Shown piece by piece: positions 8,777-12,562 of a stretch of DNA of 64,000 nt. The notes beneath the pieces were generated by a model that was not told where the DNA came from, ran no database searches, and was given only the letters and a program-made list of their open reading frames with translations. The first letter of the stretch is position 1; each line of letters starts with the position of its first letter. Origin of the DNA: Bacteroidia bacterium (GTDB lineage: Bacteria > Bacteroidota > Bacteroidia > NS11-12g > UBA955); assembly GCA_965655465.1 (NCBI GenBank), contig CBFHGY010000002.1:9982-73981 (forward strand), written 5' to 3'. Both the position numbers and the translations under genes were made by a program.

Positions 8777-10099
8777 ATGAACTATATCTCAGATATCGAA
8801 TTGGATTTGGCTTGGTTAGAAAACTTGATTCAATATCAGTTGGGAAGGGCATCGCAAGAATTGGTAAATCGCATTGAAAATGGAGGTGAAATTTTACCTC
8901 CTCAAATTGAAAATGGAGGATTTTACAGCGATAATTTGAAAGCTTGGAATCCCAGTGGAGTCGAGCGCGGTTTAATTGTGATCGGATTGGCATTGTATTT
9001 TAAGCCCAGTATTTTTGATCCATTGCTAAAGGCGGCCAAAGACAGTAACTACACCGAAACACGTTTAGGGGGAATTATTGGAACGGCTCAAGCCCCTTTC
9101 GTGCCTACCGGCGAAACCGCAATTTTCCTTTTAACGAATGGCTCGGTTCAAGAACGCATGTTAGTTCTGCATTGTTTAAACCAAGAACATTGGCTTTTTG
9201 AAAAGGGTATTTTAATTTTTGATTATAAGGAGCCTGGATTGCCGCTATCCTTTCAACCTTTTTCTTTGAGTAGCGATTACATGGAAATTTTCTCAAAGGG
9301 TATGGCCACAAAACCGAATTATTCGAGCCAGTTTCCTGCCTCATTGGTTAAAACTACTATGGAATGGTCTGATTTGGTTATTTCAAAAGAATTGAACAGG
9401 GAAATTCGCGATATAGAATTGTGGTTGGAATTTGAGCAACGTTTATTCGGTGAAATGGGTTTGGGAAGGAAAATAAAAGAAGGATATAAGGCCGTTTTTT
9501 ACGGTCCTTCCGGAACTGGTAAAACGCTCGTTGCGGGTTTGATCGGAAAGAAGTTTAACAGAGATGTTTATCGGATCGACCTGTCTCAATTAAGTTCAAA
9601 ATATATTGGTGAAACCGAGAAAAATATCGATAATTTATTCAAACAAGCCAGGAATAAGAATTGGATATTATTTTTTGATGAAGGGGAATCCTTGTTTGGC
9701 AAACGTTCGCAATCAGGACAGTCTAATGAACGATATGGGAATCAGCAGGTAGGTTTCTTGCTTCAGAGAATAGAGGATCATCCGGGGGTAGTTATTTTAG
9801 CCACGAATTTAAAGAGTTCAATAGACGAAGCTTTCTTAAGGCGTTTTCAAAAAATGATTTACTTTGAAGCGCCTGATAGTGAGTACCGTTTGGAATTATG
9901 GGCAAAGGCCTTGGACGGTACTTTGCCTTTAGCTTCTAACATTGATCTGCGAGTGATAGCAAAAGAGCATAAGCTGGTGGGGGGGCAAATTGTTAATATT
10001 GTAAAGCAAGTTATTTTGCGAGAATTAGGGGCTGAAAAGGGAGAAATCCGTTTAAAAACCTTACTTGACGCGATTGAGGAGGAACTGAATAAAAAATAA
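8777..10099 (+). CDS. AAA+ ATPase, eCIS Afp15/Pvc15-like (single AAA domain)
   Basis: Walker A is FYGPSGTGKT and Walker B is ILFFDEGESLF. The segment NERYGNQQVGFLLQRIEDHPGVVILATNLKSSIDEAFLRRF is typical of ATPases encoded in phage-tail-like clusters. The gene is divergent from the structural operon. Confidence 0.85.
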   Translation: MNYISDIELDLAWLENLIQYQLGRASQELVNRIENGGEILPPQIENGGFYSDNLKAWNPSGVERGLIVIGLALYFKPSIFDPLLKAAKDSNYTETRLGGIIGTAQAPFVPTGETAIFLLTNGSVQERMLVLHCLNQEHWLFEKGILIFDYKEPGLPLSFQPFSLSSDYMEIFSKGMATKPNYSSQFPASLVKTTMEWSDLVISKELNREIRDIELWLEFEQRLFGEMGLGRKIKEGYKAVFYGPSGTGKTLVAGLIGKKFNRDVYRIDLSQLSSKYIGETEKNIDNLFKQARNKNWILFFDEGESLFGKRSQSGQSNERYGNQQVGFLLQRIEDHPGVVILATNLKSSIDEAFLRRFQKMIYFEAPDSEYRLELWAKALDGTLPLASNIDLRVIAKEHKLVGGQIVNIVKQVILRELGAEKGEIRLKTLLDAIEEELNKK

Positions 10100-10224
10100 G
10101 CATCCCCGATGGGACTTGAAGTTTTCCACAAAGATTTGATCGGATATCGAGGAATCGGTGTTCAGTCCTTTCTTTTGTGATTCAGTAAAATTGCACGCAA
10201 TACCCTGAATAAAAACAAACTACT

Positions 10225-12084
10225 ATGGCTTTAACTGCAGAATTAAAAAAACAGGATACAAGCACACCACCTGCGAATACGGCCACCAACTCTGGTCCTG
10301 CATCTGGTGCGCAAACCACTTTGCCTGCCAATCAAGGTGCGAGTGTGGCTGGAAATTCCTCAGGTACCCCGGCACAAACGACTACGGTCCCAGCAAAACC
10401 AGCAGGACCTTCAGTTGCCGGTAGTGCGATGGCAATGGTTGGGGGCGCTCGTATGGCAGCAAGTGCCAAGAAAACAGTTGCCGATAGAACGGCTAAAAGC
10501 CAAACAATGACGGGTGCCGCCGTGGATATCAGTGCAGGTCGTGACGACAGTGATGACGAATCGGTGGGCGATCAGGCAAAAGGAGTTGTAGATGACGCTT
10601 TTGGGGTTATAGGAGATGCAAAGGATGAGTTTGAAGACGGTTATAAAGCCGTTAACGAAGCTCAAGGTAAAGAGGAAGACGATTTGTCTGAAACCGTACA
10701 AAAAGACATGAAAGGTCTTGCAGTGGCTGCAAGTGTTATGGGTACCGTTTCAGGTATAAAGGCAATGTCTGATTCTTTAACCACCTTAATGGATCCCAAT
10801 AAAGAGTTTTTAGATAAAATAGAGGCGGGTTTTGAAATGGGAGAAGGCATTGCTGGAACGGTAGGTGCAGCATCTGATTTTACCAATGAAGTGGCTGCTG
10901 AAGGTTCTAAAGTTGCTTCAGATTCGGAAGCAGTGAGTGCATGGTCGGGCAGTGTAGGGGATGCTATCGGAGCAATCAAAACAGGGTTCTTAACGGTAAA
11001 ACAATTGGTAACCACCATAAAAGAACGGAATGATAGTAGTAAGAGAGAAAAAGCTCTTGAAGGCTTGGGAATTGCGCAAGGCTTTGTAGAAACGGGGAAA
11101 TCGGTTTTAACTGTAATAAATGGAGTAAAAGAAGCCTTAGACGGTGGTACTTTCGGTGGAGTTGCTGCCGCGATTCCTGGATTAGACATTGCACTTTCGG
11201 GTATTGCTATAATCAAGGAGGGATTTTATCTGGTAGTATCTTATCGCGATTATAAGCAGATGATTGCAGAGAACGAATCGAAAGAAAAGGATCCTGGGTC
11301 AGTGGTAAAAGAAAAGTCTGAGGAACTTAGAAAATACGATGCTACCATTTCAAATTATAAAGTAGCGATTACAGAAGATGAGGAAAAATCTGCCATTCTG
11401 GAAGAAAAAATAAAAACGGCATCCGATGAAACAGGATTTTTTAAATCCACTTCAGATAAACAAAATCTGATCAATGAGAAGATTAAATTAGATGCTAATA
11501 TTCTTAGAATGAAGAATCAGACTGCAGCGGTTGCCGTTCAAAAAAATGATCTCGAAGCGGCAAATCCGGATGTCCTAGAATACGCAATGGTGGGCGAAAT
11601 CGCGGAAGCCAACAAAAAGAGAATCGTAAGAAATTCCATTTTATTGGTTGCGGAATTTGCAAATCTAGCCGGGTCTATTGCCAATTTAACGGGTGTAGGA
11701 GCTATAGCAGGCGCTAGTTTGAAAACAGCTTCAGCCTCGGTGAAGGTGGCATTGCCTGCTGCTCGCGCTGCGAAACAAGCAGGTCGAGATCGACATGCCG
11801 GTAAAGAGGCTCGGGGAGAATCTGATGTGATGACCAGCGGTTTTGATGCCAGTAAATCCACCGCAGCAAAAAGAGATTATCGCATGAAACAGGTGAATAC
11901 CCTCCTACAACAAATTCAAAATTTGAAAACATTGAAAGGAGCGGCATTTGATTCAAGAGCCAAACAATTAGAAATGTATATCTCAGCTATGGGAGTGAGT
12001 CCAGGTAAGTTATTTGCTCAGAATGGCAACCAAAAGGAACAAATAACCATGCTTTACAAAGCCTTAATACAAAGAGAAATTTAA
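10225..12084 (+). CDS. Hypothetical 619-aa protein; candidate eCIS payload or tail tape-measure (function unresolved)
   Basis: This is a long ORF directly after the ATPase. Residues 12-57 are A/T/P/S/G/N/Q-rich with no charged residue. An acidic block spans about aa 105-160. Two hydrophobic Gly/Ala-rich segments (aa 309-339 and 469-500) are separated by a charged coiled-coil-like region, and the C-terminus is basic. I saw no catalytic motif and no HExxH. Confidence 0.7.
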   Translation: MALTAELKKQDTSTPPANTATNSGPASGAQTTLPANQGASVAGNSSGTPAQTTTVPAKPAGPSVAGSAMAMVGGARMAASAKKTVADRTAKSQTMTGAAVDISAGRDDSDDESVGDQAKGVVDDAFGVIGDAKDEFEDGYKAVNEAQGKEEDDLSETVQKDMKGLAVAASVMGTVSGIKAMSDSLTTLMDPNKEFLDKIEAGFEMGEGIAGTVGAASDFTNEVAAEGSKVASDSEAVSAWSGSVGDAIGAIKTGFLTVKQLVTTIKERNDSSKREKALEGLGIAQGFVETGKSVLTVINGVKEALDGGTFGGVAAAIPGLDIALSGIAIIKEGFYLVVSYRDYKQMIAENESKEKDPGSVVKEKSEELRKYDATISNYKVAITEDEEKSAILEEKIKTASDETGFFKSTSDKQNLINEKIKLDANILRMKNQTAAVAVQKNDLEAANPDVLEYAMVGEIAEANKKRIVRNSILLVAEFANLAGSIANLTGVGAIAGASLKTASASVKVALPAARAAKQAGRDRHAGKEARGESDVMTSGFDASKSTAAKRDYRMKQVNTLLQQIQNLKTLKGAAFDSRAKQLEMYISAMGVSPGKLFAQNGNQKEQITMLYKALIQREI

Positions 12085-12094
12085 ATTTTCAAAT

Positions 12095-12562
12095 ATGATT
12101 AACGAAGACAATACCTTACAAATTATACAAAACCAAATATTACCATTGGGCTATAAAGCACAATTTATCGAAGAGTTTAATGAGCTTCCCTTTAAAGTAT
12201 TATTGGTTTATCCCTATGAGGAAGACGAAAAACCAGAACTCAAAGATTGGGCCTTGAATTTTACGGTTTTTCCAATGGGAGACGACCTAGACGGATCTGT
12301 TTTTTTGCAGATGTACTGGGAATATAATTTGAAAGTTTCATCTGATAATAGGTCTAAGGTTGCTGAAAAATTGATAGATATCAATTTTCAATTGCCCTTA
12401 GGAAGCCTTGGAATTTCACCGGAAACTGGAAGTATTTATTTCCGCATGGTGATGCCTATTGCGCTGCAAACGGAAATTACTTCCGCTTATATGTCGGATG
12501 TTTTGGATATGGGAATTTATCCGATGGAGACCTTTTTCCCTGAGTTGTCGGCACTTTTGTAA
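12095..12562 (+). CDS. Acidic 155-aa protein, T3SS-chaperone/YbjN-like pattern (candidate chaperone for the upstream protein)
   Basis: The gene starts 10 nt after the 619-aa gene. The protein is strongly acidic (about 24 D/E against 9 K/R by my count). The segment KVAEKLIDINFQLPLGSLGISPETGSIYFRMVMPI resembles the LL..N......g.l.ld.e.g.l.l pattern of CesT/YbjN-type chaperones. This assignment is by eye only. Confidence 0.55.
   Translation: MINEDNTLQIIQNQILPLGYKAQFIEEFNELPFKVLLVYPYEEDEKPELKDWALNFTVFPMGDDLDGSVFLQMYWEYNLKVSSDNRSKVAEKLIDINFQLPLGSLGISPETGSIYFRMVMPIALQTEITSAYMSDVLDMGIYPMETFFPELSALL

Follow-up and report, generated by a model that had tools for sequence, protein, structure and literature searches.

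A probable cargo-loading trio of ATPase, putative effector and YbjN-like partner beside an AlgoCIS-like contractile injection system of a Bacteroidia bacterium

The choice and loading of cargo by extracellular contractile injection systems (eCIS) is an open question, and one that is relevant to the re-engineering of these particles as protein-delivery tools. Several elements of the process are already known, namely ATPase-dependent loading in AlgoCIS and in the Photorhabdus virulence cassettes (PVCs), disordered loading signals, cargo marked by the DUF4157 domain, and a chaperone-like loading factor in the metamorphosis-associated contractile structures (MACs). In AlgoCIS, the ATPase Alg15 (435 amino acids (aa), Walker B residue E292) is reported to be required for cargo loading, dispensable for assembly and never found in particles, and a disordered N-terminal sequence of the cargo to be needed for its loading (bioRxiv 10.64898/2026.05.27.728243). 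A similar loading role in PVCs is reported for Pvc15 (PMC11495950; bioRxiv 10.1101/2023.08.15.553202). In the MACs of Pseudoalteromonas luteoviolacea, the membrane-disrupting cargo Mif1 (PMC11796346) needs the chaperone-like protein JF50_12605. The filling of the MAC tube depends on this factor, which binds Mif1, self-associates and does not occur in particles (PMC6748791). The present analysis concerns a stretch of 64,000 nucleotides (the window) from a marine Bacteroidia bacterium (contig CBFHGY010000002.1, assembly GCA_965655465.1), in which three genes at positions 8777-12562 encode an AAA+ ATPase, a 619-aa putative effector and a 155-aa acidic partner. This trio is best read, with a probability of about 0.6, as the cargo-loading module of an AlgoCIS-like eCIS; all functional statements made here are bioinformatic.

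The trio is encoded on the plus strand, with the 440-aa ATPase at 8777-10099, the 619-aa protein at 10225-12084 and the 155-aa protein at 12095-12562, separated by gaps of 125 and 10 nt. An earlier note on this DNA had described a divergent module of loading ATPase, large protein and acidic chaperone-like protein, and its open reading frame (ORF) coordinates, sizes, strand and spacings proved exact on recheck of the ORFs. The note's boundary of the locus at lpxB is likewise confirmed: this convergent housekeeping gene (PF02684, E 1e-87) lies at 12712-13806 on the minus strand, outside the module, and the same lpxB flank is found in the related loci L002 and L006 (the loci compared carry L numbers). 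The same three genes in the same order, with the lpxB/surE flank wherever the contig is long enough, occur in relatives whose effectors are 53-94% identical to that of the window, the nearest named genome being a Bacteroidia metagenome-assembled genome (MAG) with an effector 94% identical. Because order and flank are kept while the effectors have diverged to this extent, the arrangement is judged not to be a product of chance.

The trio diverges from a structural operon on the minus strand (361-8524), whose character is apparent from Pfam matches, the PDB match of the sheath and gene order. Reading leftward from 8524, this operon encodes an unannotated 119-aa protein, a Pvc16_N cap, a 276-aa protein, the sheath and two gp19 tubes, followed by a plug-like ORF of 64/69 aa, CIS_tube, spike, PAAR, gp25 and the start of a 1,205-aa baseplate protein, whose gene runs past the left window edge. 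The closest PDB match of the sheath is the AlgoCIS sheath (7adz, E 2.6e-133), and the gene order from cap to gp25 is that of AlgoCIS of Algoriphagus machipongonensis (compared with PMC8894135). Because of this sheath match and the shared order, the structural operon is, on sequence grounds, an AlgoCIS-like eCIS of subtype Ib, and belongs to the same eCIS clade. The placement of the accessory genes differs. AlgoCIS has a single operon, with the genes for the tape-measure protein (TMP) Alg14, Cgo1, Cgo2, a TPR protein and Alg15 together at its 3' end (PMC8894135), whereas in the window the ATPase, effector and partner diverge from the cap end, and the TMP, as seen in relatives, stays at the far end. 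Furthermore, the accessory protein of AlgoCIS is the TPR protein, with no YbjN-like partner reported, and the window effector differs in having no DUF4157.

The first gene of the trio encodes an Alg15/Afp15-type AAA+ ATPase. Its product contains a single PF00004 AAA domain (E 9e-27) preceded by an N-terminal domain of about 230 aa, and the classical-clade AAA+ module is present with its Walker A motif GPSGTGKT at 243, pore loop KYIG at 275 and Walker B motif ILFFDE at 297-302 (E302). The nearest PDB relatives are VAT/Cdc48/p97 (E 6e-39), and a hidden Markov model (HMM) of the full-length ATPase retrieves the ATPases of other eCIS loci (L008, L010 and L019). The gene is located inside the eCIS locus, 252 bp from the 119-aa gene which, followed by the Pvc16_N cap, begins the structural operon. 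Compared by published description, its size, layout and Walker B position (440 aa, E302) resemble those of Alg15 (435 aa, E292). Collectively, these motifs and matches show the predicted product to be a classical AAA+ ATPase of the single-ring kind, in which the Walker motifs are intact and a pore loop for substrate threading is present. The view of an Afp15-like ATPase transcribed away from the structural operon, put forward from the ORFs, is thus upheld by PF00004, by the eCIS-ATPase HMM matches and by the opposite strands of the two units.

For the second gene, the 619-aa putative effector, searches of Pfam, NCBIfam, PHROG and PDB with sequence and profile return no relative (coiled-coil noise only in PDB), and a word-indexed search retrieves no more than 19 close relatives, which all share the same synteny. 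When 1.84 billion cluster representatives are searched with a profile, 242 proteins are found at E <= 1e-3, with lengths of 420-1,172 aa; the source names of the family members are all "hypothetical". The conserved region reaches the C-terminus in most of the proteins among the matches listed, the extra length being N-terminal. It is in this N-terminal position that DUF4157 (PF13699, eCIS_core) sits, with matches in 12 of 22 family members by Pfam and, by an HMM of our own together with a matching HExxH motif, in 64 of the 129 family proteins of at least 400 aa. DUF4157 is also present in genes adjacent to the family member in L008, L009, L016 and L020. This domain is a very eCIS-specific toxin marker, found N-terminal to toxin domains or in a neighbouring gene (PMC8213781). 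The effector gene is located at the locus edge, after the ATPase, and the same position is found in L015 and L019. The earlier suggestion of a 619-aa payload is therefore strengthened by the DUF4157 fusions and by the recurrence of the family at eCIS locus edges near the ATPase in several lineages; at the family level, and judging from these associations, the 619-aa proteins behave as eCIS cargo.

In the window protein, residues 1-115 or so are Ala/Pro/Ser/Thr-rich and stand in the place of DUF4157 (a stretch of about 115-150 residues). Residues 1-100 consist to 66% of Ala/Gly/Ser/Thr/Pro, residues 1-130 have a predicted local distance difference test score (pLDDT) below 30 in the AlphaFold2 (AF2) model, and family members differ in both the length and the sequence of their N-terminal region. 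By analogy with the disordered N-termini of AlgoCIS cargo, this region is a candidate loading sequence. The remainder of the protein is predicted to be all-helical (mean pLDDT 48) and includes two hydrophobic helices, at residues 309-340 (nt 11149-11244; Kyte-Doolittle hydropathy up to 1.9) and 467-500 (nt 11623-11724; about 1.3-1.4). The two most conserved motifs of the family are contained in these stretches or directly precede them, and the most conserved part of the protein is C-terminal (residues ~448-619, nt 11566-12081). Foldseek with the AF2 model, of mean pLDDT 48, returns generic long-helix matches only. With low confidence, the effector may act on a membrane through a hydrophobic helical hairpin.

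The hydropathy of residues 309-340, which reaches transmembrane level (1.9) in this one segment, would also suit a different role. eCIS particles are released by lysis of the producer cell, and the 619-aa protein could be a membrane-active lysis factor, or an anchoring or assembly factor, rather than cargo, with the 155-aa protein as its restraining partner; for a dangerous lysis factor, close coupling to an inhibitor-like partner would be fitting. Such an accessory function is nevertheless improbable when set against the DUF4157 cargo-marker fusion in about half of the family, the disordered N-terminus of loading-signal kind in the window protein and the position after the ATPase, like that of known payloads. 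Moreover, the 619-aa protein has neither a signal peptide nor an N-terminal membrane anchor. As cargo, the family is comparable to the DUF4157-marked eCIS-associated toxins (EATs; PMC8213781), in that half of its members have an N-terminal DUF4157, after which come a long helical region and, C-terminally, a conserved module, and to Streptomyces Tme (PMC11126660), with coiled coils and hydrophobic helices. In contrast to the EATs and Tme, the window member has no DUF4157, and the family has no recognisable enzymatic domain, is unrelated to CIS_TMP when profiles are compared, and does not occupy the TMP position.

The last point bears on the initial hypothesis for the 619-aa protein, which was that of a tape measure equivalent to Afp14/Alg14, with the 155-aa protein as its assembly chaperone. 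Afp and PVC loci have the tape-measure gene (14), the ATPase gene (15) and the cap gene (16) side by side, and the 619-aa gene likewise stands near ATPase and cap genes. Its product is all-helical, with coiled coils, Ala/Gly-rich composition, a conserved C-terminus and lengths that vary across the family, and its 619 aa are near the 526-537 aa of Alg14. This hypothesis was rejected, and is now considered highly improbable, on the evidence of relatives, which encode a separate tape measure. The left part of the locus is known from relatives, reached through a metagenome scan, exact-sequence look-up and context look-ups. L032 carries the 235-aa and 1,205-aa proteins of L027, and the baseplate N-terminus of L027 is 83% identical to that of the window. 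Past gp25, L032 encodes proteins of 1,205, 235, 60 and 831 aa and, at the end, a PF19268 CIS_TMP of 1,988 aa; L033 has the same layout with a TMP of 1,758 aa. A dedicated CIS_TMP is thus encoded at the far end of the structural operon in relatives of the window locus, and CIS_TMP and a 619-family gene are both present in L008, L016, L019 and L020. PF19268 is matched neither by the window protein (E <= 0.01) nor by 22 family members (E <= 0.001), and an hhalign comparison of the family profile with six CIS_TMPs yields a probability of 0.1%. The DUF4157 fusion in half of the 619-aa family and the existence of orphan 619-family copies outside eCIS loci also argue against a tape measure. An exact-sequence look-up of the window gp25 gave no match, a word-indexed homologue search with the N-terminal part of the 1,205-aa baseplate protein gave two short fragments only, and scans of viral contigs with the baseplate fragment and the effector gave no match.

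The CIS_TMPs of these loci are themselves unusually long in comparison with those of AlgoCIS (537 aa) and L019 (531 aa). Their lengths are 1,988 aa in L032 (13395-19361), nearly four times that of the AlgoCIS TMP, 1,758 aa in L033 (12511-17787), 1,842 aa in L008 (14306-19834) and 1,383 aa in L020 (2804-6955), and PF19268 matches only their C-terminal part. At the published 0.229 nm per residue, such proteins would predict particles longer than 400 nm. Alternatively, they may carry large extra domains, possibly effector-like, by analogy with Streptomyces Tme.

The third gene encodes an acidic protein, as the earlier note had said (isoelectric point 4.07; 24 Asp and Glu versus 9 Lys and Arg). 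Its sole family match is PF10722 (YbjN), at 21.8 bits against a gathering cut-off of 22 (E 2.4e-4). The same family is matched by five of 19 partners at E <= 0.01 (best 5.1e-07), and two partners are named "YbjN domain-containing protein" by NCBI. The AF2 model obtained with a diverse alignment (pLDDT 89.4, predicted template modelling score 0.84) contains the alpha-beta-beta-beta-alpha-beta-beta-alpha fold of class I chaperones of type III secretion systems (T3SS). Foldseek matches the model to the YbjN-family structures DR_1245, PA14_16140, YbjN and AmyR (4h5b, 8q8o, 6vu7, 5frk) with probability 1.0, and to the T3SS class I chaperones VecA (9ux0), SicP (1jyo), CesT (5wez), ExsC (3kxy) and SpcU (4akx), with template modelling scores of 0.5-0.72. 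Effector-bound chaperone structures are among these matches, 9ux0, 1jyo, 5wez and 3kxy being found at probability 1.0. YbjN proteins share the T3SS class I chaperone fold, a role in secretion not being known for them (PMC5398634, PMC3575483).

A word-indexed search with the 155-aa protein finds close relatives only. Partners were sought beside 619-family genes with an HMM built from its close relatives. A homologue adjoins the 619-family gene in all 20 loci scored, downstream in 19 and upstream in one (L010), with gaps of -11 to 58 nt; L014, in which the contig end cuts off the partner position, is outside these 20. The pairwise identities of effectors and partners are strongly correlated (r = 0.87, Mantel 0/2000; r 0.62 among distant pairs), which indicates that the two are inherited and diverge as a unit. 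The chaperone-like nature proposed for the 155-aa protein is therefore supported by the modelled YbjN/T3SS class I chaperone fold together with the constant pairing with a 619-family gene.

The genomic contexts of the pair extend this picture. The genome scan returned 15 loci, a small sample biased to the two peptide motifs used, and 14 distinct architectures were compared, with eCIS genes scored within 10 kb. Nine of them have eCIS genes in this range, two have DUF4157 only, two are orphans and one is on a contig too short to judge (L022). The window type is represented by six loci with effectors 53-94% identical to that of the window, in which ATPase, effector and chaperone diverge from the cap end. 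In L015 (Flavobacteriales MAG, effector 37% identical), alaS, rsmG and a glycosyltransferase gene stand between the structural operon and the trio, whose order is the same. In L019 (Chitinophagales), fibre chaperone, baseplate, TMP, ATPase, DUF4157-effector and chaperone follow one another at the 3' end of the main operon, before ileS. The ATPase-effector-chaperone order therefore recurs in three genomic arrangements (window type, L015 and L019). The divergent cassette of the earlier note is accordingly to be modified: the trio is kept together, and its divergent placement is one of three. The retention of the trio in these three placements is the strongest indirect evidence, drawn from gene order, that its members would function jointly.

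The other architectures retain the pair in more varied settings. In L008, an eCIS_core gene lies beside the pair, which faces the genes of the ATPase and of a separate TMP. In L010/L023, a DUF4157-effector fusion stands between the sheath operon and further DUF4157 genes, ATPase and cap. The Mariniphaga loci (L016/L017/L020) have TMP, GH18, effector and chaperone (order shown in L016 and L020), and L018 (Tangfeifania) has GH18, effector and chaperone, with cap, sheath and tube genes downstream. In L021 (Leptolyngbya) and L025 (Spirulina), an AAA ATPase, matching that of the window in the AAA core only, adjoins the pair. L009 (Paenibacillus) and L024 (Anaerolineales) have DUF4157 only, adjacent or fused. 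Overall, the family of the pair spans Bacteroidota, Cyanobacteria, Chloroflexota, Firmicutes and a MAG labelled Epsilonproteobacteria. This multi-phylum spread, and the orphan pairs in housekeeping contexts in L011 and L026 (the latter in Rhodonellum), would be expected of an independent two-gene module whose proximity to eCIS is coincidental. The chance of this is slim, in view of the nine of 14 architectures with eCIS genes within 10 kb and the two more with DUF4157, a domain of very high eCIS specificity (PMC8213781), and of the trio with its ATPase being kept together in three arrangements. The same counts answer the earlier note's concern that homologues of the pair might occur mostly outside eCIS loci, since nine of 14 architectures are eCIS-linked and a further two carry DUF4157.

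Regarding transcription, a divergent intergenic region of 252 bp (8525-8776) between the structural operon and the ATPase gene presumably holds both divergent promoters, as would follow from its position, and includes a block partly conserved in relatives, GATAGTA...AATAGGAT. The spacer between ATPase and effector genes contains a conserved non-coding element (10116-10177, plus strand) with invariant blocks in six loci. Its 15-mer TTGAAGTTTTCCACA (10116-10130) is invariant in these six loci, with effectors 53-94% identical, and is unique in the window; the T-rich block TTTCTTTTG (10169-10177) is invariant in the same six. A scan of the intergenic regions for sigma-70 promoters and terminators performs no better than on shuffled sequences, none of the three intergenic regions contains the Bacteroidota -7 motif TAnnTTTG, and there is no support for a conserved RNA fold of the spacer element. 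Judging from its conservation, this element may be an internal promoter or a regulator site, in which case the effector-chaperone pair would perhaps be partly under its own control.

Taking these features together, the cargo-loading reading of the trio would proceed as follows. In the cytoplasm of the producer, the 155-aa chaperone would bind the newly made effector, probably shielding its two conserved hydrophobic helices, and would hold it in solution, without harm to the cell and sufficiently unfolded to be loaded. The hexameric ATPase would then recognise the disordered effector N-terminus, strip off the chaperone and thread the effector into the tube lumen, with chaperone and ATPase staying behind, outside the particle. 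After firing, the effector would be released into the target, where it may attack the membrane. A more specific proposal, tentative and on balance doubtful, is that this branch of the YbjN superfamily is a true secretion chaperone outside type III, which hands an eCIS effector to an Alg15-type AAA+ unfoldase that strips the chaperone and threads the effector. If true, the relay would mirror the type III chaperone/SctN mechanism in a phage-tail machine, would give the widespread and functionally unclear YbjN fold a defined role, and would define, across several phyla, a new family of eCIS effectors that are probably membrane-active.

Several observations weigh against a loading role. An immunity gene classically lies just downstream of its toxin gene, which is the position of the 155-aa gene. 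The orphan pairs of L011 and L026 have neither an eCIS gene nor DUF4157 within 10 kb. The window 619-aa protein has no PF13699 match, and no DUF4157 gene is seen across the window or across the remainder of the L032 locus. With a poor model and no structural or sequence relative of known function, the activity of the effector is a guess. The conserved motif of the spacer may mean that the effector-chaperone pair is controlled separately from the ATPase. Finally, proteins of the YbjN family elsewhere among bacteria have partners that are not secretory (PMC5398634, PMC3575483).

The first of these points leads to the main rival of the loading module, namely that the pair is a toxin-immunity system, in which the 619-aa protein is an antibacterial eCIS toxin, from which the 155-aa protein protects producer and kin by neutralising it, with no part in loading. 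A small gene immediately downstream of a toxin-like gene in 19 of 20 loci, co-diverging with it, resembles polymorphic toxin-immunity pairs. The orphan pairs away from eCIS loci (L011 and L026) agree with such a function, and some eCIS toxins do have adjacent immunity genes; most, however, do not (PMC8213781). The fold of the 155-aa protein is that of secretion chaperones and YbjN-type protein binders, and a membrane-acting toxin would call for a membrane immunity protein, whereas the 155-aa protein is soluble and acidic. A purely immunity-related function is hence considered unlikely; the chaperone and immunity roles of the 155-aa protein are not mutually exclusive and could coexist.

For the cargo-loading module, a functional parallel by description is the MAC pair Mif1/JF50_12605, which belongs to the same subtype Ib and combines a large cargo of unknown fold with a separate small partner. 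In contrast to the window, the fold of JF50_12605 is not reported to be YbjN-like, the gene order differs, and the factor is not encoded directly beside the cargo gene. The T3SS pairs SicP-SptP, CesT-Tir, VecA-VepA and SpcU-ExoU, acting with SctN, also resemble the window, having a small acidic alpha/beta partner encoded beside its effector, matched here with a Foldseek probability of 1.0, and an unfolding-capable ATPase encoded in the same unit. They differ in that the T3SS is a membrane-embedded needle with an F1-like SctN, whereas the eCIS is a contractile phage-tail particle with a classical AAA+ ATPase. Sequence similarity between T3SS chaperones and the 155-aa protein is nil (~10-17% identity), YbjN being closer. 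The YbjN family itself (E. coli YbjN, Erwinia AmyR, Deinococcus DR1245, PA14_16140/BacA) shares PF10722 with the partner and provides its top structural matches. Its characterised members have stress-related or regulatory functions and no secretion role (PMC5398634, PMC3575483), in contrast to the 155-aa branch, which is strictly coupled to an eCIS effector family.

In the literature searched, no paper links YbjN to contractile injection systems or to DUF4157, and none describes this effector family. The effector family, its obligate partner with the YbjN/type III chaperone fold and the self-contained trio are thus apparently undescribed. The earlier note did not recognise the arrangement as characterised in Bacteroidota, a statement which apparently holds for the trio itself and has to be narrowed by the reported AlgoCIS loading ATPase (bioRxiv 10.64898/2026.05.27.728243) and MAC loading factor (PMC6748791). 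A dedicated eCIS cargo chaperone has so far been reported only as the "chaperone-like" MAC factor of unreported fold. The present locus would provide a minimal and self-contained set, in which loader and cargo are joined by a partner whose chaperone fold is known and in which the hand-off step is testable. The cargo-partner pair is conserved across several bacterial phyla; it would add a large unannotated family to the catalogue of eCIS toxins and suggests a secretion-related function for YbjN-like proteins.

Two proteins of the structural operon deserve separate mention. The 119-aa protein encoded by its first gene (8165-8524, minus strand) is basic (isoelectric point 9.5) and has no relative in Pfam, NCBIfam, PHROG or PDB searches; every window-type locus, as well as L015 and L028, has the gene conserved at this place. 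Because the operon of AlgoCIS as described begins with the cap gene (PMC8894135), the 119-aa protein may be an extra component or a regulator. The 276-aa protein (6766-7596, minus strand) occupies the position of the AlgoCIS cap adaptor Alg16B, of which the AlgoCIS structure paper reports an atomic model (PMC8894135). A PDB chain search with this protein gives no sequence match, Alg16B included, and it is either a very divergent cap adaptor, a role suggested by its position alone, or a different protein.

Further observations concern the neighbours of the pair in other loci. A GH18 (chitinase-like) gene recurs beside CIS_TMP or directly upstream of the pair, often with a TPR protein (L008 4062-5984; L016 6992-9304; L020 6990-9305; L033 18930-20942; L032 from 20630), and could be a second cargo or a hint of chitin-bearing targets. 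Just upstream of the pair in L008 (7859-9907), a second YbjN-like paralogue of 169 aa comes after an unannotated 511-aa gene and a 228-aa eCIS_core gene, an arrangement that may represent a second cargo-chaperone pair, of a different effector family. In L020, the minus strand at 11807-14813, convergent with the pair, encodes an eCIS_core protein and, beside it, a protein that matches the ligand-binding domain of neurotransmitter-gated ion channels (PF02931, E 5e-21). As a candidate eCIS cargo, a protein with this domain is unusual. In L015 (3757-8441), the glycosyltransferase among the separating genes is of the GT2 type, and a second AAA ATPase, of two modules and 880 aa, follows the trio. 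Within the window itself, beyond lpxB, a PIN-domain gene (138 aa) and a DUF2281/DUF6364 gene (151 aa) lie at 14959-15861 on the minus strand, between surE and a large outer-membrane beta-barrel gene. These two genes are likely a toxin-antitoxin pair, and the same pair is also found in L002.

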